Below are positions 9,459 through 27,875 of a stretch of 64,000 nt of DNA, piece after piece. The notes below the pieces were generated by a model. The model made no database searches, was not told the origin of the DNA, and worked only from the letters and a program-made list of their open reading frames with translations. The stretch is from a bacterium (GTDB lineage: Bacteria > Vulcanimicrobiota > Xenobia > Xenobiales > Xenobiaceae): positions 8,943-72,942 of the forward strand of contig JALHDH010000002.1 in NCBI GenBank assembly GCA_022839105.1. Reading direction: 5' to 3'. The position numbers were made by a program, and so were the translations under genes. How positions within the stretch are numbered: position 1 is the first letter of the stretch; each line of letters starts with the position of its first letter.

Positions 9459-10575
9459 TCTCCTGACGCGTTACCGGGCCCTGGAGACCCCCCGGGTCGT
9501 CGGCCTGATGTCGGGAACCTCGGCCGATGCCATCGACGCCGCCCTGGTCGAGATGGGCCCCCGGCCGCGTCTGCTGGACTTCCGCTCTCACCCCCTACCT
9601 GCGGAGGTCCGTCGGAGGCTGCAGGAGGTCTTCGAGGACCGCGGTTCGCCTCGGGAGATCCTGCGCCTGCACTGGTTGCTGGGAGAGCTTTTCGCCCGGG
9701 CGGCCCTCTCGGTGATGGAACCCGGCGCCGACCTGGTCGCCTCCCATGGTCAGACCATCGCGCATCTCCCCCAGGCCGAGGACTTCTGCGGCGAGTCGGT
9801 GCGGGGGACCCTGCAGATCGGCGAGGGCGCGGTGATCGCCCGACGCACCGGGTGTCTGACGGTCTGCGACTTCCGGCCGGCCGACCTGGCAGCGGGCGGA
9901 CAGGGAGCCCCTCTGGTGCCCCATGCCGATGCCCTGCTCTTCCGCGACCCTCATGTGGATCGTCTGGCCCTGAACCTGGGAGGGATGGCCAACCTGACCT
10001 GGATTCCCTCCCACGGGGAGGTCGAGGCCTGCGATACGGGGCCGGGCAACGCTCTTCTGGATGCCCTGGCCTGGCGAGCGACCGGAAGGCCCTGCGACGA
10101 AGGGGGGGGGCTGGCGGCCCGAGGTCAGGTCCTGCCCGAGATCCTGGCGGAGTTGATGGCCCACCCCTACCTGTCGCGGCCTGCGCCCAAGTCAACCGGG
10201 CGCGAAGAGTTCGGAAGGGCCCTGGCGGACCGACTCTGGGGCCGGGGGAACCCCGAGGACCTGCTCCGGACTGCTGCCGCCTTCACGGCCGCCTCGGTCA
10301 TGTTGCATGTGCAGCGATATCTGCGGGGGGAGGCCCAGATCCTGGTGGGTGGGGGAGGGGTCGAGAATCTGGTCCTGATGGTCGAGTTGAGTCGGCGGCT
10401 GCCGGAAGGGGTCCGCCTTCTGCGGATGGAGGAGGTCGGCCTTCCCGCCCAGGCCCGGGAGGCGGTGGCCTTCGCCATCCTGGGGCACGAGACGGCCCAC
10501 TTCCGGCCAGCCAACGTCCCCCGGGCCACGGGCGCCTCCTGTCCGGTGGTCCTGGGCCGGATCCTGGTGCCCTGA
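9451..10575 (+). CDS. anmK: Anhydro-N-acetylmuramic acid kinase
   Basis: Start at M11 of ORF 9421. Motifs are VVGLMSGTSADAIDAALV and DTGPGNALLDA. It overlaps the ubiE stop by 8 nt. Confidence 0.8.
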   Translation: MSDLLTRYRALETPRVVGLMSGTSADAIDAALVEMGPRPRLLDFRSHPLPAEVRRRLQEVFEDRGSPREILRLHWLLGELFARAALSVMEPGADLVASHGQTIAHLPQAEDFCGESVRGTLQIGEGAVIARRTGCLTVCDFRPADLAAGGQGAPLVPHADALLFRDPHVDRLALNLGGMANLTWIPSHGEVEACDTGPGNALLDALAWRATGRPCDEGGGLAARGQVLPEILAELMAHPYLSRPAPKSTGREEFGRALADRLWGRGNPEDLLRTAAAFTAASVMLHVQRYLRGEAQILVGGGGVENLVLMVELSRRLPEGVRLLRMEEVGLPAQAREAVAFAILGHETAHFRPANVPRATGASCPVVLGRILVP

Positions 10576-10638
10576 GCGGGGTCGAGCGGGCGGGCCTTGC
10601 AGACCTTGCAGGGGCGATCGCCTCAACGGCCGGCTGGC

Positions 10639-10672
10639 GAAAGAAAGGCCGGGCTCCCGAGGGGACCCGGCC
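10639..10672 (-). terminator. Rho-independent terminator for the small minus-strand gene
   Basis: Stem GGCCGGG...CCCGGCC (10647-10672), followed on the minus strand by TTTCTTTC (10639-10646). It lies 22 nt after the stop at 10694. Confidence 0.45.
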
Positions 10673-10693
10673 GGGCTGGTTGGTCCGTGGCGT

Positions 10694-10909
10694 TCAGGCG
10701 GTCCGCTTCACCTGGATCTCGTTGAGCACCTCCACCTCGCCGCAATCCCGCGTGGAGCGCAGGCTGGGATCCTTGCGCCGGCGGTGCCGGCTCCGATCCC
10801 TGCCCAGCGAAACGCAGCGCCGGATGCGGACCCGCGAGGTTCCCCCTTCGTTGATTCGGACATACTCTTCGACGACGGCCATTCCGCCACAGTGGGGGCA
10901 TGATGCCAA
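10694..10909 (-). CDS. Small Cys-containing (zinc-ribbon-like) protein, 71 aa
   Basis: TTG start with a GGAGGAGGAGAGAGG RBS 4 nt upstream. Sequence M-ASCPHCGGMAVVEEYVRINEGGTSRVRIRRCVSLGRD...RDCGEVEVLNEIQVKRTA. It has its own terminator. It is the only plausible part of the 471-aa ORF 10694..12109. Confidence 0.4.
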   Translation of the reverse strand: MASCPHCGGMAVVEEYVRINEGGTSRVRIRRCVSLGRDRSRHRRRKDPSLRSTRDCGEVEVLNEIQVKRTA

Positions 10910-11197
10910 TTTGCCTCTCTCCTCCTCCGGTCGCCTCGGGTTCCTGGTTCCGGGGGGCACGACAAGCCACTGGCCGGGGTGACGAGAGTCCCTGGAAGGG
11001 CGCGACCCGGGCCTTCCGGTCCCTCGACATCCACCATGATAGACTCCGAAAGGCGTGAAAAAGTTCCCCTCTGTCCGGAAAAGGGCACGTCGGAGTGGCG
11101 CGGGGGATTCCGAAGGGTCGTCTAGAACCCCGGATCGAGCCTCGACTCCGACGATCCAAGGGCCGGAGGAACGGGGGGATGAAAGGATGCAGCACGG

Positions 11198-12076
11198 TTG
11201 TTGAGTCCCAGCCTGGACACCTGGAGCACCGTCGTGGCCATCATCGCGGCGCGGACCTCCGTGACCCTGGCGGCAGCCCTCTATACCAGGCTTTCCCGGA
11301 CCTATCCGGGATTCTCGCACTGGGTGGCGGGGATGCTCAGCGGGATCCTGGGCTTCCTGGCTTTGGTCCTGCATCCGTTCATCCCCCTCCCCAGCGTCCT
11401 GCTGGCCAATTTCTTCAATTGCCTGCTGGTCGTGTTCATGCTGGACGGAACGGTGCGCTTCGTCCACGGAGGCCGCATCCGTCGCAGGTGGTACCTTGTC
11501 CCCGTCCTGTCCCTGCTGGCGGGGGGGGCACTCTTCGTATTCCAGGACATGCTGCGGGTCCGGGTCCTGTGGAATACGGTCTTGTTGTCCTTCTTCGCGA
11601 TCCTGTGTGCCCGCATCTGGCTGCAGAACCGCAGGGAGGGGGCCCTGAGGCTCTCGCGGATCAGCGCGGGCCTGTGCCTGGCCTATGTGGTCGCCATGTC
11701 GCTCCGGGGGATCGACTGGATCATGGCCCCGCCGACCCGCAGCCTCTTCGTCCTGGGCCCCAGCGAGGCTCTCTTCTTCCTGGCCATCGGCATGATCGAC
11801 CTGGCCCTGGCTGCCATGTTCCTCGTGCACAACGGCCAGCGCCTGGATTCCGATCTGCGCGAGAGCGCGGCCCGGGTCCGCCTGCTGACGGGAATCCTGC
11901 CGATCTGCTCGCGCTGCAAGAACATCCGCGACGAGGAAGGGCACTGGACCCCCGTCGAACAGTACGTGCGCCATCACACCGACGCCGAGTTCTCGCACGG
12001 AGTGTGTCCCGGGTGCTTCCGCGAGATGTATCCCGACTTTGCGGATGAGGTCGAAGCCATGGGGGGATTCCGATGA
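11198..12076 (+). CDS. Integral-membrane sensor with a Cys-rich C-terminal module
   Basis: 292 aa with 6-7 TM helices. The C-terminus reads LPICSRCKNIRDEEGHWTPVEQYVRHHTDAEFSHGVCPGCFREMYPDF. Its stop overlaps the PilZ start (ATGA at 12073-12076). Confidence 0.6.
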   Translation: MLSPSLDTWSTVVAIIAARTSVTLAAALYTRLSRTYPGFSHWVAGMLSGILGFLALVLHPFIPLPSVLLANFFNCLLVVFMLDGTVRFVHGGRIRRRWYLVPVLSLLAGGALFVFQDMLRVRVLWNTVLLSFFAILCARIWLQNRREGALRLSRISAGLCLAYVVAMSLRGIDWIMAPPTRSLFVLGPSEALFFLAIGMIDLALAAMFLVHNGQRLDSDLRESAARVRLLTGILPICSRCKNIRDEEGHWTPVEQYVRHHTDAEFSHGVCPGCFREMYPDFADEVEAMGGFR

Positions 12077-20164: not shown

Positions 20165-21685
20165 TCAGGAATCGGAGGGACGGCCCAGCGCGAAGTCGAC
20201 CAGGCTCAGCAGCCCGTTGACGTCGAAGGGCTTGGAGAGGAAGGCCACGGCCCCGTGTTCGAGCATGTTGGCGCTGCGCTCGTCTGCCCCGTAGCCGCTC
20301 ATCACGACCACCCGCAGGTCGGGGTTCAGCTCGCGCATCTTCTCGAAGGCCTCCTGTCCCCCCATCACGGGCATGGTCAGATCCAGGAAGACCATCTTGA
20401 TTTCCCGGCCGTGGGTCTTGAGCAGTTCGACCGCCTCCAGGCCGTTGCGGGCCGTCAGGGCCCGATAGCCGCGTCGGCGCAGGGCGGCCCCGGCGAAGAG
20501 GCGGATGGCCTCCTCGTCGTCCGCGAAGAGGACCAGCTCGTTGGCCGACCGATCCAACAGGGAGGTCTCCGGGGGCTGGGCGCCGGGTGGCTCGTGAGCC
20601 GGGAGGGCGGGCTCGCGGGGGGCGGCGGGAGTGAAGGGCAGGAGCACCATGAACCGGGTTCCTAGGCCCTCTTCGCTGACGAAGCTGACCAGGCCCCCGT
20701 GGCTGCGGATGATCCCGTAGGTGGTGGCCAGGCCCAGTCCGCTCCGGGAGTCCTCGCGGGTGGTGAAGAAGGGGCGGAAGATGCGGGCCTGGATCTCCTT
20801 GGGGATGCCTCGGCCGGTGTCCCCCACCTCGAAGAGGAGGTAGCGGCCCGGGGCCGCTCCGGGGAAGTGCTGGCGGTGGTCTTCGTTCATCTCCACCAGG
20901 GAGCTGCGGAACACGATCACCCCCGGGTTGTCGGCCAGGGCATCGCGGGCGTTCAGGGCCAGGTTCACGAAGGCCTGTCGCAACTGCTCAGGGTCGGACT
21001 CGATCTGGCAAGGGTCGGCCTGAAGATCGACTCCGATCTCGATGTTCCGGGGGAAGGTCTGGCGGACCAGCTCGACGACGCCCTGGAAGACCTCGGAGGG
21101 GTCGCAGGATTCCTCCCGGCGCACGTGGCGCCTTCCAAAGGTGAGAAGCTGACCGGCCAGGTTCAGGCCTCGCCGGGCTGCGCTCTGCACCTGGCCGAGC
21201 AGGACCCGCGACGGGGTATCCTTGGCGTCCAGGACCAGCAGATCGGTCAACCCCAGGATCGCAGTGCCCACGTTGTTGAATTCATGTGCCAGTTCCCCGG
21301 AGAGCTCCGAGAGGGCCTCGACCCTTTGGGCCCGGTTGGTGTGTTCTTCGCGCTGCCTGCGTCGGGCCACGTCCTGCAAAACGGCATAGACGGGCCCCTC
21401 GGGCTGGACGGGATCCCCGTGGACCAGGACCTCCAGGAGCACTCCGTCGGGCATGGACACCAGGCTGCTCCAGGAATCGGCGCCCTCGCGCACGGTCCGG
21501 GCTGCCAGGGTCAGGGCCTCGGCCAGGATGGCGAGCTCGCCGTCCTGGGGGAGAGGGCGGCCGGCCCCTTCCTTCAACTCAAGAATGCGGGCAGCCTCTC
21601 GGTCGGGAAGGAATTGCCCGTCGGCCTCGATCCGGATCGTGCCGAAGGGGATCTCCGAGCCGGTGAAGGGAGTCGAGTTGCTCAT
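20165..21685 (-). CDS. Hybrid sensor histidine kinase (PAS-like sensor, HisKA, HATPase, C-terminal receiver)
   Basis: H-box LAHEFNNVGTAILG. The ATPase has N (ALNARDA), G1 (DTGRGIP) and G2 (GLGL) blocks. The receiver is VLFADDEEAI...VFLDLTMPVMGG...VVVMSGY. Confidence 0.8.
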   Translation of the reverse strand: MSNSTPFTGSEIPFGTIRIEADGQFLPDREAARILELKEGAGRPLPQDGELAILAEALTLAARTVREGADSWSSLVSMPDGVLLEVLVHGDPVQPEGPVYAVLQDVARRRQREEHTNRAQRVEALSELSGELAHEFNNVGTAILGLTDLLVLDAKDTPSRVLLGQVQSAARRGLNLAGQLLTFGRRHVRREESCDPSEVFQGVVELVRQTFPRNIEIGVDLQADPCQIESDPEQLRQAFVNLALNARDALADNPGVIVFRSSLVEMNEDHRQHFPGAAPGRYLLFEVGDTGRGIPKEIQARIFRPFFTTREDSRSGLGLATTYGIIRSHGGLVSFVSEEGLGTRFMVLLPFTPAAPREPALPAHEPPGAQPPETSLLDRSANELVLFADDEEAIRLFAGAALRRRGYRALTARNGLEAVELLKTHGREIKMVFLDLTMPVMGGQEAFEKMRELNPDLRVVVMSGYGADERSANMLEHGAVAFLSKPFDVNGLLSLVDFALGRPSDS

Positions 21686-21851
21686 GGTGGGGAGGCTTTC
21701 GGCGAAGCAGGGAAGCTGCCCTTTCCATCAGGCGAATCTGATCCGGCCTTTCCCCGCCTCGTCTCCTCCGAAAGGCCAGGAAACTCCGTTTCTTGGAAAA
21801 CCGAGGCCCGTCGGGTAGGGCTTCGAGTCGATCTTGCGAATAGGCGGACCC

Positions 21852-22064
21852 ATGAATCCTCAGAGCCATTGGGAGCGTTGGAAGGCGCTGGCGGCCCGGG
21901 CTGCCACCTTTCAGGCCAGGGTCCTGCTGGTGGCCTTCTATTGGGTGGTGGTGACTCCCTTCGCCCTGCTCTTGCAGGCCTTTGCGGACCCCCTGGAGCT
22001 TCGGAACCCCGAGGGCGGACGCTGGTCCCGACCCGCGGCCGGCGACCCCCGGCGGCAGCACTGA
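21852..22064 (+). CDS. Small single-TM protein upstream of the carbamoyltransferase (SxtJ-like candidate)
   Basis: 70 aa (MNPQSHWERWKALAARAATFQARVLLVAFYWVVVTPFALLL...). Its TGA overlaps the carbamoyltransferase ATG (TGATG at 22062-22066). An alternative TTG lies at 21834. Confidence 0.45.
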   Translation: MNPQSHWERWKALAARAATFQARVLLVAFYWVVVTPFALLLQAFADPLELRNPEGGRWSRPAAGDPRRQH

Positions 22065-25000
22065 TGAGGGTCCTGGGGATTTCCTGCTTCTATCACGACG
22101 CTGCGGCGGCTTTGCTGGTGGATGGGCACCTCGTCGCCGCGGCCGAGGAGGAGCGCTTCTCGCGGGTCAAGCACGACTGGGAGTTCCCTTCCCACGCGGT
22201 CCGGTTCTGCCTGGACCGGGCCGGGATCACCGGGGCCGACCTGGACCTGGTCGTCTTCTACGAGAAGCCCTTCTGGAAGTTCGACCGGATCCTGATGTCC
22301 ACCCTGGCCACCTGGCCCCGTTCGATGGTGGCCTTTCGGGAGGCCATGTTGGTCTGGCTCCTGGATAAGTTGTGGGCCCGGGATCTGCTCCAGGAGCGGA
22401 TCGGCTGCCAGCGGGATCGGATCGTCTTCTGTCCCCACCACATGTCCCACGCCGCCAGCGCCTTCTATCCTTCGGGGCTTGAGAAGTCCGCGATCCTGAC
22501 CGTGGACGGGGTGGGCGAGTGGGCCACCGGAACCCGGGGGACCGCCTGGGACCAGGAGATCCTCCTGGACGAGGAGATGCGCTACCCCCACTCATTGGGG
22601 TTGTTGTACAGCGCCTTCACGGCCTTCCTGGGCTTCCAGGTCAACGAGGGCGAATACAAGGTCATGGGCATGGCGCCCTACGGGCAGCCCCGCTTCGCGG
22701 ATCTGATCCTGGACAAGATGGTCCATCTGCGTCCGGACGGCTCCTTCCGCCTGGACATGGACTGCTTCGCCTACCACCACTCGGCCTTCCATTCCTTCAG
22801 CGAGCGCTTCGTCGAGTTGCTGGGGCCGGCTCGGACCCGGGAAGAGGCGAACCTCCTGGACCCCCACTATGCCGACGTGGCGGCCAGCATCCAGAAGGTT
22901 GCCGAGGAGATCCTGGTCCGACAGGCTTCCTGGCTGCACCGACGGACAGGGCACGAGGCCCTGTGCATGGCCGGAGGAGTCGCCCTGAACTCGGTGGCCA
23001 ACTCCCGGATCCTGCGCGAGTCGGGCTTCAAGAAGCTGTACATCCAACCCGCCGCCGGCGACGGGGGAGGTGCCCTGGGAGCCGCCCTCTGGGGCTACCA
23101 TCAGGTCCTGGGCGGGCGCGAACGTTTCCGGATGGATCACTGCTATTGGGGACAGGAACATTCCGACCAGGCCATCGCCGATTTCCTGCGCTCGGAAGGC
23201 CACGCCTACCAGGAATTCTCCGACCTGGAAGCGGTCCATTCGGAGGTGGCCGAACGCCTGGCCTGTGGACAGGTGGTGGGCTGGATGCAGGGGCGCTTCG
23301 AGTGGGGCCCTCGGGCCCTGGGCGCGCGCAGCATCCTGGCCGACCCCCGGGCGGCCCACATGAAGGACGTCGTCAACGCCCGGATCAAGTTCCGGGAGCC
23401 CTTCCGCCCCTTCGCACCCTCCGTTCTGGCCGAGCGGGTGGAGGATTACTTCGATCTTCCCGACGCGCCGGGGGTGGACCCGGCCCGCTTCATGCTGATG
23501 GTGGTCCCGGTCCGGCCCGATCGCCGGGACGAGATCCCCGCCGTGACCCACGTGGACGGCACCGCCCGCATCCAGGCCGTGCACCGGGAACAGAGTCCCG
23601 AATACCACGGGGTGATCTCGAGTTTCTGCCAGCTCACCGGGGTTCCGGTGGTCCTGAACACTTCGTTCAACCTGCGCGGCGAGCCCATCGTCAATACTCC
23701 TGCCGAGGCCTACTCGACCTTTGCCCGCTCGGACATGGATGCCCTGGTCATGGGCCGCTTCCTGGTCAGCCGCCGGGCGGCGGGTGAGGGGCGGCTGGTC
23801 CCAGGAGCGGAGCTGGAGAAGTGGGCCCACGCCCCCCAGAGGGTCTCTGGGACCGAGAACCGTCCAGAGTCCCGTCCGGCTCTTGCCGAGTCCGGTCACG
23901 GTCTTTTCGGAGTGCGCCCGGAAGAGTCGCCAGCCTCCGGCCCGAACGGCGTCTCACCGGCTTCGCTCCTGGGGAAGGTGGCGCTGGTCCTGCTGGCCAG
24001 CCTGGTCCTCCTGGAGATCCTGGTCCGCTTCCTGGTGCCCAATCCCAACATGCAGCTTCGCGGCATGTACCTCGAGGACGAGGAGGGAATCCGGCTTCGG
24101 CCGGGCTGGCAGGGCAGGATCCACAACGCGGAGTTCGACACCCGGGTCGAGATCGGTCCGGACGGCCGGCGGGATCTCCCCGAGCCCCCGCCGGACCCGA
24201 CGGCGACGGTCCTGGCCCTGGGGGATTCCTTCACCTTCGGCTGCTGGTCGGACTCCGACTCGACCTGGCTTGCCCGCCTGCAGCGAGCCGGCGGGGTCCG
24301 GGTCCTCAACGCCGGGGTTCCCAACGCGGGAACCGACGCCGAGGCGGCCTGGCTGCGCGGCCCGGGGGCCGGGATCCCGGCGGATCTGCTCCTGGTGGCC
24401 TTCTATACGGGCAACGACTTCCACGACAACCTGGTGGGACGGGACGCCTTCACCCTGGATTCCGGCTTCCTGGTGCTCAAGCCCGCCGCCGAGGCCCGTT
24501 GGAGCGGGTACGATTGTCTGGGGCGGACCCCTCCGCCCCGGACCGACCTGCCTCCAGATGCCCGCCGCCCCTGGTATCGCGGGGCTTTGATGCGCAGTCA
24601 CCTGTATCAGTATGTGCGTTCGCGGGTGTATGGGGGCACGCGTTCGGCCCTGCGCCCCTCCTTGCCCCAGGCCTGGTTCCTGCGCCGCTACACCCCCGAG
24701 ATGGAGCAGGCCCTGTTCAAGACCAACCAGCACCTCGACGACCTGCTGGCCCAGGCCAGATCGCGGGGGATTCCAATGGCCCTGGTTGTCATCCCCTCCT
24801 CCCAGGAGGTCTACGACGAGGAATGGCAGGCCTGGCTGGCGGCCTGGGAGCTGGAGGATGGGCTCTTCGATCGCTCCAGGCCGCGCCGCTTCCTGCTGGA
24901 CTGGGCCCGCCAGAGGAATGTGCCGGCCCTGGACCTGCTTCCATCGCTTCGGGGGCGGGAGCGTCTGTACTATCGGGCGGACATGCACTGGAATGACCTG

Positions 25001-25075
25001 GGCCACTTCCAGGCGGGTGAGAAGGTCGCGGAGTTCCTGCGCGAGCAGGGTCTTTCCGGAGAGGTGGGACGATGA
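22064..25075 (+). CDS. NodU/CmcH-family carbamoyltransferase fused via a TM helix to an AlgX/AlgJ-like SGNH (DHHW-type) domain
   Basis: 1003 aa. The N-domain starts MRVLGISCFYHDAAAALLVDGHLVAAAEEERFSRVKHD. The C-domain has HVDGTARIQAV and VVLNTSFNLRGEPIV. A TM segment is VALVLLASLVLLEILVRFLV. The SGNH blocks are LALGDSFTFGC, NAG, TGND and YYRADMHWNDLGH. The 455 codons upstream in the same ORF are antisense to the histidine kinase and were rejected. Confidence 0.8.
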   Translation: MRVLGISCFYHDAAAALLVDGHLVAAAEEERFSRVKHDWEFPSHAVRFCLDRAGITGADLDLVVFYEKPFWKFDRILMSTLATWPRSMVAFREAMLVWLLDKLWARDLLQERIGCQRDRIVFCPHHMSHAASAFYPSGLEKSAILTVDGVGEWATGTRGTAWDQEILLDEEMRYPHSLGLLYSAFTAFLGFQVNEGEYKVMGMAPYGQPRFADLILDKMVHLRPDGSFRLDMDCFAYHHSAFHSFSERFVELLGPARTREEANLLDPHYADVAASIQKVAEEILVRQASWLHRRTGHEALCMAGGVALNSVANSRILRESGFKKLYIQPAAGDGGGALGAALWGYHQVLGGRERFRMDHCYWGQEHSDQAIADFLRSEGHAYQEFSDLEAVHSEVAERLACGQVVGWMQGRFEWGPRALGARSILADPRAAHMKDVVNARIKFREPFRPFAPSVLAERVEDYFDLPDAPGVDPARFMLMVVPVRPDRRDEIPAVTHVDGTARIQAVHREQSPEYHGVISSFCQLTGVPVVLNTSFNLRGEPIVNTPAEAYSTFARSDMDALVMGRFLVSRRAAGEGRLVPGAELEKWAHAPQRVSGTENRPESRPALAESGHGLFGVRPEESPASGPNGVSPASLLGKVALVLLASLVLLEILVRFLVPNPNMQLRGMYLEDEEGIRLRPGWQGRIHNAEFDTRVEIGPDGRRDLPEPPPDPTATVLALGDSFTFGCWSDSDSTWLARLQRAGGVRVLNAGVPNAGTDAEAAWLRGPGAGIPADLLLVAFYTGNDFHDNLVGRDAFTLDSGFLVLKPAAEARWSGYDCLGRTPPPRTDLPPDARRPWYRGALMRSHLYQYVRSRVYGGTRSALRPSLPQAWFLRRYTPEMEQALFKTNQHLDDLLAQARSRGIPMALVVIPSSQEVYDEEWQAWLAAWELEDGLFDRSRPRRFLLDWARQRNVPALDLLPSLRGRERLYYRADMHWNDLGHFQAGEKVAEFLREQGLSGEVGR

Positions 25076-25251
25076 GGGAAGCCTTCCGCAAACTGGGTCG
25101 GCGAGTCGAGACGGCCCGGGACTTCCTGGGCTGGATGGCCCGCACCCGCCCCTGGCTGATGCCGGTCCTGCTGGGGCTGATGCTCCTGGCCGGGTTGGTC
25201 TCGTTGGCCCAGGCCACCCACGTGGCCCCGTTCATCTACACGCTCTTCTGA
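25072..25251 (+). CDS. Small single-TM protein downstream of the carbamoyltransferase (DUF5989/SxtK-like candidate), 59 aa
   Basis: ATGA overlap with the upstream stop. Sequence MREAFRKLGRRVETARDFLGWMARTRPWLMPVLLGLMLLAGLVSLAQATHVAPFIYTLF. It is below the ORF-track size cutoff. Confidence 0.5.
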   Translation: MREAFRKLGRRVETARDFLGWMARTRPWLMPVLLGLMLLAGLVSLAQATHVAPFIYTLF

Positions 25252-25378: not shown

Positions 25379-26926
25379 CTACTGGTCTTCGGATTCCTCG
25401 CGGACGGCCGCCTCGGCGCTGGAGGCCTCTTCGGCATCGTCATCCCGGCCCGCCTCCTTGACCTGGATCCAGGGGCGCAGCAGGAAGAGCCCGATCGGGG
25501 TGACCATCGCCATCAGCGCGATGATCAGCCACATCATCTCGGAGTTGCGCGGACCGGTCTCGGGGCAGTAGGTCACCAGCAGCCAGCCGGAAAGCGGGCC
25601 GACGAAGAACTTGGCCACGAAGTAGGGCAGCATGGACAAGGACATGTAGGAGGCCTCCTGCCCCTTGGGGGCAATGGCCGCCGGATACTCATACAGCCTC
25701 GGCGAGAAGAAGGCCTCACCCACCGAGAGCATGATCACCGAGAAGAAGATCGACACGAAGAGCGGGTTGACCGCGTCGGTCTGGACCCCCAGCCACTTGC
25801 GCGCGATCAGGTCGCCCAGGAAGCCGTCGGCCAGCCCCTGGAACCACTCCGGCGGCATGGCCATGAAGAAGATCGACAGCGCTCCGATCAGGCTTCCGAA
25901 GATCACGACGCGGTAGGCGGAGATTTTCTGGGTCAAAGCTCCCACCAGCGGCACCAGGATCACGATCAGGACCGGGTTGAGCACTCCGAAGAGCTGACCG
26001 ATCGGGGCCCCTTCGCCCAGTTCGCGGATGCCGTACTTCGGGAAGGTGTAGTGGAAGTGGTAGAAGATCATCCGGACGAAGACGACCAGGGTCAGGAAGG
26101 CCAGGAAGCGATAGAAGGCCGGCTGATGCCACAGGCCCGTGAAGATGCGCTTCCATTCGCCCAGGGCATCCAGGGCGGACTTCAAGGCCGCCGTCATGAC
26201 CGGATGCTCGGCGTACTTGGATTCCTGCTTGTGGATCCGGACCTTGCCGTCCTCGCCGACCTCGATCCCCTCACGGATGCCGATCCAGACCAGGATCAGG
26301 TTGGGCACGGTGAAGAGGAATCCCAGCAGGATCAGGGTCTGGTAGGTCGTCAGGGTGAAATCGGACCCGGGAAGGGTCAGGTGGCCGTACTCACCCAGGC
26401 CGGTTCGCACCTTGTCGAAGAGGAATCCCGAGATCGCGAATCCCACGTTCATCATGGCGTAGAACATCGAGAAGGCCATGGAGCGCTGGGCCGTGGTGGC
26501 GAACTTCTTGATGGCGGCCACCATGACCGGGATCATCAGGGCCTCCCCCAGGGCCAGCGGGAGCAGGCCGGCCGGGACCACGAACCAGGGGGCGGTGACG
26601 AAGCTCATCACCAGCCGGGCCACCAGGCAGATGCCAAAGCCGATCAACAAGGAGAGGCGGATCCCGATCGCATCCACCAGCGAGCCGACCATGACCGTGA
26701 ACAGGGTCATCAGGGCGGACCAGACGGCCACCATGACGCCGGCGGGGACGTCGCCGTAGCCCAGGTCCTTGGAGAGCCACAGGACCAGGGTCGAGTTGAC
26801 CAGGCCATAGGCCACGATGGACAGGATCTTGGTGCCGAAGATGATCCACAGCTCGCGCAGCGCGCCCTTCAAGACCATGAACCTGCCCAGGAAGCTGGTG
26901 CCTTTCGGGGTCTGGACCTTTTCCAT
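25379..26926 (-). CDS. MFS-type transporter (12-14 TM)
   Basis: Start at M10 of ORF 26953. It is hydrophobic throughout with an acidic C-terminal tail. It is divergent from the acyltransferase gene. Confidence 0.7.
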   Translation of the reverse strand: MEKVQTPKGTSFLGRFMVLKGALRELWIIFGTKILSIVAYGLVNSTLVLWLSKDLGYGDVPAGVMVAVWSALMTLFTVMVGSLVDAIGIRLSLLIGFGICLVARLVMSFVTAPWFVVPAGLLPLALGEALMIPVMVAAIKKFATTAQRSMAFSMFYAMMNVGFAISGFLFDKVRTGLGEYGHLTLPGSDFTLTTYQTLILLGFLFTVPNLILVWIGIREGIEVGEDGKVRIHKQESKYAEHPVMTAALKSALDALGEWKRIFTGLWHQPAFYRFLAFLTLVVFVRMIFYHFHYTFPKYGIRELGEGAPIGQLFGVLNPVLIVILVPLVGALTQKISAYRVVIFGSLIGALSIFFMAMPPEWFQGLADGFLGDLIARKWLGVQTDAVNPLFVSIFFSVIMLSVGEAFFSPRLYEYPAAIAPKGQEASYMSLSMLPYFVAKFFVGPLSGWLLVTYCPETGPRNSEMMWLIIALMAMVTPIGLFLLRPWIQVKEAGRDDDAEEASSAEAAVREESEDQ

Positions 26927-27116
26927 GCGAAGACCTCGGAGGAAGGGATTCACCGGGGAACGGGCGGGCCACCAGGCGCATTCGCTGGGACGCTGGCCCC
27001 GGCGGGGGGGAGGCCCCTTTCTGGGTCAGTCCCAGAATTCCCGCTGCCGGGGAGGAACTTCGAGGAATCGCCCGGAACGGGGCTTGAGGATTGCCAGGAA
27101 GAGGGAGGGAAAACCC

Positions 27117-27875
27117 GTGCGACCCGTGGATCTTCTCGCCACCGTCGGGGCTTGGGGCTGGTTTGGATTGACCCTGGTGGTCTTCGACCCCGTGCTGCGC
27201 CTGGCCCGAATCCTGGGCGAGGAGCCCATGGATCGGGCCGTCGGGTTGATGTGCCGGGCCCTGGGATGCAGCATCCGGGCCGGCCTGGGGCGTCTGGAGA
27301 TCGAGGGGCTCGAGAATATTCCCGCCCAGGGCCGCTACATCGTGGTCTGCAATCATCAATCCCTGGTCGAGAGCTTCCTGCCCTTCTGGCTCCTGCAGCA
27401 CCTGCGTCCCCGCTACATCGCCAAGAGGGCGTTGGGGCGCTGGATCCCTGCCATCAGCTTCAATCTGCGTCGGGGAGGGCATTGCCTGATTGACCGCGAG
27501 GACCGCGAGCGGGCCCTGGAGGCCATCGCCGAACTGGGGCGGCGCGTGGATTCCGGCGAGGTCTCGGCCTTCATCTTCCCGGAGGGCACCCGCAGCGCGG
27601 ACGGCCGGATGAACCCCTTCAAGCCGGCGGGCCTGGCCACGCTCCTGCGCACGGCCCCTCAGGCCGCGATCCTGCCCATGGTCGTGCACGGAGGCAACCG
27701 GGTCTTCCCCCGCGGGCTTCCTCGGGTTCAGGCCGGCTCGACGGTCCGGGTTCAGGTCCTGCCGCTGCTGGCGCGAGAGGGGCGGGATGTCGAGGCCACC
27801 ATCGAGCGGATCCGGGAGGTCCTGGCCGGACGGTTCGCGGAACTCGAGGAGCGCTTCGGGTCGCCCCGGGGCTGA
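27117..27875 (+). CDS. 1-acyl-sn-glycerol-3-phosphate (lysophospholipid) acyltransferase, PlsC family
   Basis: GTG start with a GAGGGAGGGA RBS. Motifs are VCNHQSLVESF (HX4D-type) and FIFPEGTRS. Confidence 0.75.
   Translation: MRPVDLLATVGAWGWFGLTLVVFDPVLRLARILGEEPMDRAVGLMCRALGCSIRAGLGRLEIEGLENIPAQGRYIVVCNHQSLVESFLPFWLLQHLRPRYIAKRALGRWIPAISFNLRRGGHCLIDREDRERALEAIAELGRRVDSGEVSAFIFPEGTRSADGRMNPFKPAGLATLLRTAPQAAILPMVVHGGNRVFPRGLPRVQAGSTVRVQVLPLLAREGRDVEATIERIREVLAGRFAELEERFGSPRG

Follow-up and report, generated by a model that had tools for sequence, protein, structure and literature searches.

Organization of the locus

We analysed a 64-kb stretch of bacterial DNA (contig JALHDH010000002.1 of assembly GCA_022839105.1, from the Xenobiaceae), referred to here as the window, and concentrated on three overlapping genes on its forward strand. 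The central gene encodes a carbamoyltransferase joined, through a linker and a transmembrane helix, to an SGNH domain that is predicted to be extracytoplasmic, and the open reading frame (ORF) on either side of it encodes a single-pass microprotein. The features, with lengths in amino acids (aa), are as follows.

21852..22064, + strand: upstream mini ORF, 70 aa from its own ATG, single transmembrane segment, SxtJ-like (the 'mini72' family)
22064..25075, + strand: carbamoyltransferase–linker–transmembrane–SGNH fusion gene, 1003 aa, stop codon included
22067..23773, + strand: O-carbamoyltransferase module, with Carbam_trans_N at residues 2-342 (Kae1-like) and Carbam_trans_C at 396-570 (YrdC-like)
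23774..23956, + strand: flexible linker, residues 571-631, of which 603-630 are disordered
23957..24037, + strand: transmembrane helix, residues 632-658, from hydropathy and AlphaFold2
24038..25072, + strand: SGNH domain, residues 659-1003, predicted extracytoplasmic side
25072..25251, + strand: DUF5989 microprotein ORF, 59 aa, Pfam family DUF5989

We hold this architecture, and the module to which it belongs, with high confidence. The reading frame of the fusion gene is open across 20699..25075 (+), and long spurious ORFs are common in the window because its G+C content is 66-72%. The start was placed at the ATG at 22064 (MRVLGISCFYHD...), where the homologues all begin MR(V/I)LGIS, and this gives a protein of 1003 aa with its stop codon at 25073-25075, in an ORF without any N. 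The stop codon of the upstream ORF (TGA, 22062-22064) shares one base with the ATG of the fusion gene, a junction that reads directly as TGATG, and the ATG of the DUF5989 ORF at 25072 overlaps the fusion stop as ATGA, according to the ORF coordinates. A scan of the region for promoters and terminators was uninformative.

The original prediction for this locus, made from the sequence and its ORFs, had described a single 1003-aa ORF with these domains, overlapping a 70-aa and a 59-aa ORF in this way. The overlaps are as it had described, and the domain order was confirmed by Pfam, motif positions, hydropathy and AlphaFold2. Pfam placed Carbam_trans_N and Carbam_trans_C at the N-terminus and ALGX and Lipase_GDSL_2 at the C-terminus, all above their cut-offs. 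The motifs that had been quoted were all recovered in the domains given for them, with HVDGTAR at residues 496-502, VVLNTSFNLRGEP at 529-541 and VALVLLASLVLLEILVRFLV at 639-658, followed in the SGNH part by GDSFTFG (720-726), LNAG (748-751), TGND (782-785) and DMHWN (973-977). AlphaFold2 modelled the whole protein with a mean predicted local distance difference test score (pLDDT) of 89.7, as two folded domains and one long helix (residues 632-657, 26 residues). The linker is of low complexity and rich in Pro, Ser, Gly and Glu, and its residues 603-630 have a pLDDT below 50.

The fusion in Candidatus Xenobia

A full-length search of NCBI, JGI, ENA and Logan assemblies returned the same fusion in 22 protein clusters, of 978-1067 aa and 51-100% identity. 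One of these, at 89% identity, comprises 23 member sequences from 7 contigs and carries the name Candidatus Xenobium sp., and another that of Candidatus Bruticola sp.; both taxa belong to the class Ca. Xenobia of the phylum Vulcanimicrobiota (Eremiobacterota). All 22 clusters have exactly one hydrophobic segment between the two domains and keep the GDS, GND and DxH[W/F/L] motifs. The order of mini ORF, fusion gene and DUF5989 is kept in loci L091 and L092 (58% and 53% identity), where the other neighbours differ. The fusion is again followed by DUF5989 in locus L004 (SGNH part 67% identity), whose contig begins inside the fusion gene, so that no mini ORF is visible there. Public databases already contain the fused proteins, under annotations that mention only a carbamoyltransferase domain.

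The search for the fusion in related genomes that had been called for was thus successful, and it bears on the concern that an assembly chimera or a frameshift might have joined two genes artificially. Such an artefact would fit the fact that the two genes are separate in most phyla and that frameshifted copies occur in metagenome-assembled genomes (MAGs), such as that of locus L008. Against it stand the continuous ORFs of the 22 clusters from four sources of assemblies, including the cluster spread over 7 contigs, the conserved position of the linker and the transmembrane segment, the absence of N from the window ORF, and the flanking mini ORFs that L004, L091 and L092 share with the window copy (the upstream one not being visible in L004). 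We therefore give the artefact virtually no weight. The fusion is a lineage-specific (Ca. Xenobia) member of a wider module, and it probably arose by loss of a stop codon, joining neighbouring genes that are translationally coupled elsewhere.

Loci L001-L003 were considered as the unfused ancestor and rejected, because their carbamoyltransferase is only 31% identical to that of the window and its YrdC-like motifs are degenerate, so they represent a paralogous module. At L001:8088-11221, and in the same arrangement in L002 and L003, the 575-aa carbamoyltransferase is without the HVDGT, NTSFN and KFREPFRPFAPS motifs and may be a pseudo-enzyme. The SGNH protein of this module is 57-60% identical to that of the window, and its divergent DUF5989 still ends in FVYAGF. 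At L008:7787-8978 (Candidatus Binatia, GCA_026004195.1), a frameshift breaks the AlgX-like SGNH gene, which lies between those for the carbamoyltransferase and DUF5989, into pieces of 253 aa and 45 aa, and this is either a pseudogene or an assembly error.

The carbamoyltransferase domain

By its sequence, the N-terminal part of 570 residues is an intact O-carbamoyltransferase of the TobZ/NodU type. The Carbam_trans_N match over residues 2-342 scored 266.1 bits (Pfam cut-off 24) and the Carbam_trans_C match over residues 396-570 scored 235.9 bits (Pfam cut-off 27). Residues 1-580 matched GdmN, NovN and TobZ among PDB sequences with E values of 1e-99 to 1e-87. Both Pfam domains and the full-length match to TobZ, GdmN and NovN agree with the NodU/CmcH/TobZ-type assignment made originally; the protein is not NodU itself, scoring 152.8 bits against a cut-off of 1000 for the NodU equivalog of NCBIfam. 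The domain is 60-64% identical to stand-alone enzymes of ~594 aa from Terriglobia, Binatia, Dehalococcoidia, Nitrospinae, Latescibacteria and others, and mean column identity in an alignment of 14 sequences is 77%. An alignment with 13 orthologues shows no variation at H11, D12, H125, H126, H129, D333, K442, R444, H496 and N532, and we take these to be the metal- and nucleotide-binding residues, an assignment made from the TobZ literature and not from structural superposition. By homology, the enzyme would make carbamoyl-AMP from carbamoyl phosphate and ATP, and because it uses these substrates it must be a cytoplasmic enzyme.

A second, divergent carbamoyltransferase paralogue is encoded a few kb from the module in Terriglobales (L010:11189-12934 and L018:11236-12969) and in Leisingera (L176:3216-4790). 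The paralogue of L010 has ~30% identity and adjoins sulfotransferase genes.

The transmembrane helix and the SGNH domain

Residues 639-657 form the sole strongly hydrophobic segment of the fusion protein, with a Kyte-Doolittle maximum of 2.59 and no other segment above 1.9. The helix at residues 632-658 corresponds to the N-terminal signal-anchor of stand-alone SGNH homologues (n=101), in which the transmembrane segment lies a median of 12 residues from the N-terminus, with a net charge of +2.45 before it and +0.85 after it. Because the stand-alone proteins have the character of an N-in/C-out signal anchor, their SGNH domain faces outward, and because an ATP-dependent carbamoyltransferase domain must stay cytoplasmic, the same orientation applies to the fusion. 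The Xenobia fusion is thus predicted to fix the topology, with the carbamoyltransferase inside and the SGNH domain outside. The single helix and the in/out logic that had been proposed are in keeping with hydropathy, the AlphaFold2 helix and the signal-anchor charges of the stand-alone homologues.

The C-terminal domain matches two Pfam families, ALGX at residues 880-995 (36.5 bits, cut-off 26.5, covering only profile positions 21-133 of 268) and Lipase_GDSL_2 at residues 718-981 (34.1 bits, cut-off 32.9). It has the block I GDS, the block III GND, the block V Asp and His and the fold of SGNH proteins, with Ser722 (nucleotides 24227-24229), Asn784, and Asp973 and His975 (nucleotides 24980-24988) as the corresponding residues. 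AlphaFold2 modelled residues 625-1003 with a pLDDT of 95.4, as the transmembrane helix, a small beta-sheet subdomain, an SGNH core and a helical insert, which is placed between blocks III and V.

The acid and His of block V have the AlgX-like spacing D-x-H, unlike the D-x-x-H of classical SGNH proteins, so that the earlier wording, which had put D-x-H under the ordinary block I-V signature, needs correction. A profile of 55 SGNH homologues matched AlgJ (E 6e-18) and AlgX (E 2e-11 and 2e-9) among PDB sequences. These matches fall on the C-terminal half, with YYRxDxHW, and the N-terminal half, with the GDS, matches TesA-type esterases. Residues 27-149 of AlgJ align to profile positions 271-400 and residues 221-274 to positions 129-185 (query blocks II-III), and because these segments align in swapped order, the two arrangements are permutations of each other. 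AlgX and AlgJ have the D-x-H upstream of the Ser, whereas in the window protein Ser722 precedes D973 and H975, and for this reason the domain is not AlgX/AlgJ proper. Its sequence places it as an unpermuted relative of the circularly permuted AlgX/AlgJ enzymes, outside that family. An AlgX/AlgJ-type SGNH domain had been claimed; this is right for an SGNH domain with D-x-H-W and a profile affinity to AlgJ and AlgX, and it is not right for the order of the motifs or for membership in the family.

The closest solved fold to residues 625-1003 is CgnD of crocagin biosynthesis (PDB 8a2n), at 16% identity, and most other fold neighbours are esterases. The crocagin pathway also has a carbamoyltransferase, CgnI, and its authors wondered if carbamoylation precedes CgnD cleavage; crocagin is a second natural-product cluster in which such an SGNH protein is paired with a carbamoyltransferase.

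The transmembrane-anchored SGNH family is large, with 17,444 representatives at 50% identity and E<=1e-30, and carbamoyltransferase fusions account for only 2 of the best 150. More distant homologues (26-31% identity; P0006, P0013 and P0015) are not beside carbamoyltransferases. Members of the same family are fused at the N-terminus to a GT2 domain (P0219, 739 aa) or to an S-adenosylmethionine methyltransferase (P0160, 690 aa), and they repeat the pattern of a cytoplasmic glycan enzyme, a transmembrane helix and an outward-facing SGNH domain.

The upstream microprotein and the saxitoxin genes

The 70-aa ORF had no direct match in Pfam or NCBIfam and scored 77 bits with a hidden Markov model (HMM) of the mini72 family built in this analysis. 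The mini72 consensus matched the Pfam family SxtJ (PF19588) with an E value of 6.8e-4 and 20.8 bits, below the cut-off of 24.4. The mini72 HMM matched the C-terminal halves of SxtJ proteins encoded beside carbamoyltransferases (E 4e-13, 5e-11 and 4e-12, the first two named by PGAP), and it follows that the 70-aa protein is a half-size, divergent SxtJ relative. The SxtJ-like nature suggested for this ORF is thus upheld through its family HMM, which matches RefSeq entries named 'SxtJ family membrane protein'. The downstream accessory ORF, for which a comparison with SxtJ, SxtK and DUF5989 had been suggested, proved to be DUF5989, above the Pfam cut-off. Both DUF5989 and SxtJ are families already held by Pfam.

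Saxitoxin clusters list side by side sxtI, a carbamoyltransferase gene, sxtJ of 405 bp, sxtK of 165 bp and sxtL of 1278-1281 bp (PMC2679770, PMC2885083). The sxtK gene encodes 54 aa, and SxtJ and SxtK are without assigned function (PMC2679770, PMC2885083). SxtL, the GDSL lipase beside sxtI-J-K, is a predicted decarbamoylase (PMC2679770, PMC2885083). These are the same gene types as in the window (a carbamoyltransferase, two small ORFs and a GDSL lipase), and the original statement that no characterised precedent was known has to be given up in this respect. From size, order and annotation, we infer that DUF5989 is SxtK and the SGNH protein is SxtL. No entry named as an Sxt protein turned up when the protein database was searched with a profile.

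Orthologous carbamoyltransferases, at 46-50% identity, are encoded on RefSeq plasmids from cultured bacteria. The order in Paludisphaera borealis is carbamoyltransferase, 'SxtJ family membrane protein', 'DUF5989 family protein' and sugar O-acetyltransferase, and in Methylosinus sp. C49 it is SGNH, SxtJ family, DUF5989 and carbamoyltransferase (PGAP names in both). Ensifer canadensis has a GDSL protein of 443 aa, a 143-aa hypothetical protein, DUF5989 and the carbamoyltransferase. The transmembrane-anchored SGNH proteins of Methylosinus (424 aa) and Ensifer (443 aa) match the SGNH HMM with E values of 2e-10 and 1e-16, respectively.

DUF5989 and the FxYxxF motif

The 59-aa ORF matched Pfam DUF5989 with 50.7 bits (cut-off 27). 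Its product has a positively charged N-terminus, one transmembrane segment and a 13-residue tail ending in APFIYTLF, in which F54-I-Y56-T-L-F59 (nucleotides 25231-25248) fits FxYxxF. This terminus is characteristic of the family: among 93 DUF5989 tails, the exact pattern F.Y..F closes 76, a Tyr stands at position -4 in 87, and [FLM]xY occurs within the last 12 residues of every one. Across the same loci only 79 of 11,964 ORFs end in F.Y..F, and 76 of those are DUF5989.

FXYXXF is known as the 'acyl shuttle' motif of DltX and of the C-termini of MBOAT proteins, from which SGNH partners outside the membrane receive acyl groups (PMC12148441). DltX hands its group to the Ser of the SGNH protein DltD, from which it goes to lipoteichoic acid (PMC12148441). 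PatA auto-acetylates its shuttle Tyr, its Neisseria orthologue ends in FIYANF, and PatB takes an acetyl-Tyr peptide as donor (PMC12148441). By the sequence of its tail, DUF5989 carries this acyl-shuttle motif, a new element that links the module to the DltX/PatA tyrosine-shuttle mechanism.

The tail is predicted to be extracytoplasmic (N-in/C-out) from charge bias, the family having a net charge of +1.26 before the transmembrane segment and -0.24 after it, and from the hydropathy of fusions in Planctomycetota. Six Planctomycetota MAGs (L041, L048, L069, L073, L077 and L081, about 9800-11850 in each) encode an SGNH protein fused to DUF5989, of 516-534 aa, with a transmembrane anchor, the SGNH domain, three hydrophobic segments and a DUF5989 unit ending in APFIYTLF (Pfam E 2.9e-10). 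The three intervening segments would bring the tail and the SGNH domain to one side, provided that all three span the membrane; one of them is only weakly hydrophobic. In four of the six loci, one to three extra DUF5989-like mini ORFs follow directly, with tails NFQYNI, PFTYPIY and FIYPIH, in which the Tyr is always kept. A tblastn search of plasmids with DUF5989 gave no match, probably through low-complexity masking.

A conserved module in at least ten phyla

GTDB species genomes were scanned with the carbamoyltransferase alignment, and HMMs built here were searched against all ORFs of the loci obtained, which number at least 80 and are a sample. They come from at least ten phyla, among them Acidobacteriota, Chloroflexota, Planctomycetota, Binatia, Omnitrophota, Methylomirabilota, Verrucomicrobiota, Nitrospirota and Patescibacteria. 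Co-occurrence with the carbamoyltransferase gene was as follows, the second figure referring to loci with at least 3 kb of sequence on both sides.

mini72 directly upstream: 72/80 loci; 53/57 loci
DUF5989 within 3 kb: 70/80 loci; 53/57 loci
transmembrane-anchored SGNH within 3 kb: 48/80 loci; 36/57 loci
all four components: 37/80 loci; 29/57 loci

The SGNH protein was AlgX-like in 45 of 48 cases and of the classical D-x-x-H type in 3. A reciprocal scan of metagenomes anchored on DUF5989 gave 19 loci with at least 3 kb on both sides, and a carbamoyltransferase lay within 3.5 kb in 17 of these, mini72 in 16 and SGNH in 10. One of the two DUF5989 loci without a carbamoyltransferase has two AlgX-like SGNH genes and glycosyltransferase genes adjoining DUF5989. 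These counts suggest that the conserved core consists of the carbamoyltransferase, mini72 and DUF5989, associated in ~90% of loci in both directions, with SGNH as a frequent fourth member. The association extends over Acidobacteriota, Chloroflexota, Planctomycetota, Binatia, Patescibacteria, Proteobacteria and Xenobia. Whether the two mini ORFs always co-occur with the enzyme had been raised as a question, and they do so in the large majority of loci and not in every one. Across phyla the four components are found together, and different pairs of them occur as fusions. The carbamoyltransferase is highly conserved, with its 77% mean column identity, whereas the SGNH proteins show 25-45% identity and are sometimes absent or replaced, as would be expected of a constant core of carbamoyltransferase and shuttle combined with a variable output enzyme.

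Genomic context

The cell-surface glycan role that had been envisaged is not reflected in the surroundings of the window copy, whose flanking genes are of a housekeeping kind. Upstream lie genes for tyrosyl-tRNA synthetase, a subtilase, GpsA, a DEAD-box helicase and a divergent hybrid histidine kinase/response regulator, and downstream lie those for a convergent MFS transporter, a PlsC-type acyltransferase and an M13 peptidase.

Polysaccharide genes surround the module elsewhere. It lies inside polysaccharide clusters with Wzy, Wza, Wzz and Bac_transf in the metagenomic contig L009 and in Terriglobales (L010), and also inside a polysaccharide cluster in Binatia. The Paludisphaera borealis cluster includes exosortase, EpsI and a Tyr autokinase, and that of Ensifer canadensis includes GT4, Wzx and an export protein. 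In Leisingera the cluster includes YjbH/YjbF, and a second family member lies in a glycan cluster. The glycan linkage rests on these annotated and longer examples and not on statistics, because a Pfam census of 126 flanking genes was heterogeneous and without a dominant family. Full-text searches of the literature turned up no treatment of DUF5989 or of the module beyond sxt clusters, and none that connects the acyl-shuttle motif with carbamoyltransferases.

The hybrid histidine kinase/response regulator gene (window 20165-21685, -) runs in the direction away from the module. In Ensifer canadensis (L175) and Methylosinus (L174), too, two-component genes come before the module, as does a response regulator gene in L009, and such genes may regulate the module. 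The MFS transporter gene (524 aa, -) and the PlsC-type acyltransferase gene (+) at window 25379-27875 resemble lysophospholipid transport and re-acylation pairs. They were rejected as functional partners by a lipid route, since the MFS gene is shared with the closest relative, L004, alone and with none of L001, L091 and L092. An ORF of 292 aa at window 11198-12076 (+) shows gene-like codon bias and four or more hydrophobic segments and has no Pfam match.

An apparent fusion of the carbamoyltransferase to YfhO in Candidatus Curtissbacteria (L059:3474-9270, a 1401-aa ORF) was rejected because its junction is a run of N, translated as 15 X; only the adjacency of the carbamoyltransferase to YfhO and PMT_2, which are GT-C proteins, is reliable there. 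No DUF5989 was detected in L059.

A proposed route for carbamoyl groups across the envelope

From these analyses we propose, with a probability of about 45%, that the products of the three genes form a membrane complex that moves carbamoyl groups from the cytoplasm to an extracytoplasmic acceptor, most likely an envelope polysaccharide. An envelope glycan as the acceptor has, taken by itself, roughly even odds, and the carbamoyl-tyrosine relay by which transfer might occur is put forward tentatively, at something short of that. The carbamoyltransferase would make carbamoyl-AMP in the cytoplasm and load the DUF5989 shuttle, directly or indirectly. On the model of DltB-DltX-DltD and PatA-PatB, DUF5989 would carry the group on its invariant Tyr56 as O-carbamoyl-tyrosine and present it to Ser722 of the SGNH domain, which would pass it on to a hydroxyl of the final acceptor, an envelope polymer. 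The SxtJ-like microprotein, together with the transmembrane helices of the other two proteins, would be the membrane part of the complex. The group might cross through a conduit that the SxtJ-like protein builds together with the other helices, a tail-anchored microprotein might be loaded before its insertion into the membrane, or a lipid-linked intermediate might be used. The relay is plausible because HypF is known to carbamoylate the C-terminal Cys of HypE, because conservation is distributed as expected for a constant carbamoyltransferase/shuttle core and a changing output, and because the sequence affinity of the SGNH domain is to transferases of MBOAT systems.

Several observations weigh against this proposal. 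No MBOAT or AT3 protein was found in the module or among the multi-transmembrane ORFs checked in the 64-kb window (UbiA, the MFS transporter, a spermidine-synthase-like protein and one without a Pfam match), which offers no catalyst for the membrane-crossing step, and the likeness to OatA/AlgI-AlgJ systems drawn originally does not extend to a conduit of that type here. The predicted side of Tyr56, outside, is opposite to that of the carbamoyltransferase active site. Alkyl carbamates and carbamoyl-serine enzymes are sluggish, and carbamoyl transfer through a Ser would be unusual. The SGNH triad, Ser722-His975-Asp973, is assigned from sequence motifs and not from model geometry, and should be read as putative. 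The closest solved fold, CgnD, is a hydrolase, and an SGNH gene is absent within 3 kb of the carbamoyltransferase in ~40% of loci. DUF5989 had no Pfam DltX match at E<=1 and has only the hexapeptide in common with it. There are no glycan genes among the genes flanking the window copy, and only ~10% of the 126 flanking genes in the census are related to envelope glycans.

As an alternative, the group might be written inside and erased or edited outside, the carbamoyltransferase modifying a cytoplasmic or lipid-linked precursor and the SGNH protein acting on the exported product as a trimming hydrolase (a decarbamoylase or de-O-acylase), with the microproteins merely anchoring or organising the complex. 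The hydrolase CgnD, itself from a pathway with a carbamoyltransferase, the esterases that make up most of the other fold neighbours, and the dispensability of SGNH in ~40% of loci all fit this explanation, as does the predicted decarbamoylase role of SxtL beside sxtI-J-K (PMC2679770, PMC2885083), although that role is only predicted in the saxitoxin papers and not shown experimentally. However, it leaves unexplained both the invariant Tyr of the FxYxxF tail on the SGNH side and the SGNH-DUF5989 fusions, and the sequence affinity of the SGNH domain is to AlgJ and AlgX, which are transferases. We consider it unlikely, if well short of negligible. Less probable again, in our judgement, is a route by lipid carrier, in which a sugar on polyprenyl phosphate (or another lipid-linked intermediate) receives the carbamoyl group from the carbamoyltransferase at the inner face and is flipped with its carrier, GT-C/Wzy-type enzymes install the carbamoylated sugar, and the SGNH/DUF5989 pair, as a separate step, O-acylates or trims the same polymer. 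Such a route would suit the Curtissbacteria locus, where the carbamoyltransferase gene is followed on the same strand by YfhO and PMT_2, both of GT-C type, as well as the recurrence of PMT_2, polysaccharide deacetylase and GT4 among the neighbours, the position of the module within Wzx/Wzy-type clusters in Ensifer and Acidobacteriota, and the strong cross-phylum conservation of the carbamoyltransferase, which would also fit a universal lipid-linked substrate. But the apparent fusion with YfhO spans a run of N and amounts to adjacency, GT-C neighbours are rare (3/126), and DUF5989 and the carbamoyltransferase accompany each other in ~90% of loci, whichever of them is taken as the anchor and even without a nearby SGNH gene, which argues for a direct functional tie between these two proteins.

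The same gene set in sxt clusters, and the co-occurrence of a CgnD-like SGNH protein and a carbamoyltransferase in the crocagin cluster, could also mean that the module is a tailoring cassette of secondary metabolism, saxitoxin- or crocagin-like, with a small-molecule acceptor in place of an envelope polymer. This is very unlikely, given that no biosynthetic core genes lie near the window copy or among the immediate neighbours of the 80 loci sampled, that annotated examples sit in polysaccharide clusters, and that the module is also present in MAGs of Patescibacteria, organisms with small genomes.

The components themselves have been seen before: the saxitoxin papers of 2009-2010 already point out SxtJ, SxtK/DUF5989 and a GDSL protein next to O-carbamoyltransferases, without giving them a tested function. 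If the relay, working without an MBOAT or AT3 channel, is correct, it would provide a first function for SxtJ, SxtK and SxtL and for a module of more than ten bacterial phyla, including Patescibacteria. It would also make O-carbamoylation a widespread post-export modification of bacterial surface polymers, with membrane crossing achieved without an MBOAT or AT3 protein. Should the relay prove false, the gene is still a Rosetta-stone fusion that places the carbamoyltransferase and the SGNH protein in one pathway. Genetically tractable hosts with the module in exopolysaccharide clusters are available in Ensifer/Sinorhizobium and Paludisphaera, and Ralstonia carries a related carbamoyltransferase.

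Comparison with known transfer systems

The N-terminal 580 residues of the window protein match TobZ, GdmN and NovN over their full length, with both Pfam domains. These, however, are soluble antibiotic-tailoring enzymes without a membrane tether, microproteins or an SGNH partner. The sxtI-J-K-L genes have the same component types in the same adjacency, and transmembrane-anchored SGNH proteins (~420-450 aa) lie beside SxtJ-family and DUF5989 genes in cultured relatives. They differ from the window in that the carbamoyltransferase and the SGNH protein form one polypeptide here, the SxtJ-like protein is of 70 aa instead of about 135-140 aa, and no toxin pathway is nearby. The likeness to CgnD extends only to 16% identity; that protein was purified and crystallised in recombinant form and slowly cleaves a leader peptide, and the text consulted mentions no accompanying microproteins.

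HypF carbamoylates the Cys of the extreme C-terminal PRIC motif of HypE, and thus a TobZ-related enzyme is known to carbamoylate a residue in the C-terminal motif of a partner (PMC12130793). The window carbamoyltransferase has weak matches to HypF-family profiles. In the HypF-HypE system, however, the group is accepted by a thiol, that of a Cys in a soluble protein, dehydration turns the product into thiocyanate, and nothing is membrane-bound.

The closest parallels in organisation are with DltA/B/C/D/X, PatA/PatB and AlgI/AlgJ/AlgX, which share with the module cytoplasmic activation, an FxYxxF tail that is predicted here to be outside, and a transmembrane-anchored SGNH protein with Ser and His. 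DUF5989 is similar to DltX in size, in its single pass, in the position of the motif and in having an AlgX/DltD-like SGNH partner, but there is no detectable sequence homology between them. The module differs from MBOAT-SGNH systems in having no MBOAT and in its donor, which would be carbamoyl-AMP and not an acyl thioester. It differs from AlgX and AlgJ in the order of the SGNH motifs, Ser first here and permuted in theirs, and in having no AlgI-type MBOAT partner. Unlike the OatA-type AT3-SGNH proteins, the window protein has as its donor side a soluble two-domain carbamoyltransferase on one helix, in place of an AT3 channel of 10-11 transmembrane segments. The kind of system that we propose would therefore be an SGNH-based trans-envelope transfer system with a carbamoyltransferase as its donor side. 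Perhaps, although we regard this as doubtful at present, the carbamoyltransferase, the SxtJ-like protein and DUF5989, with or without SGNH, make up a third class of trans-envelope group transfer beside MBOAT-SGNH and AT3-SGNH, one that works without either channel.

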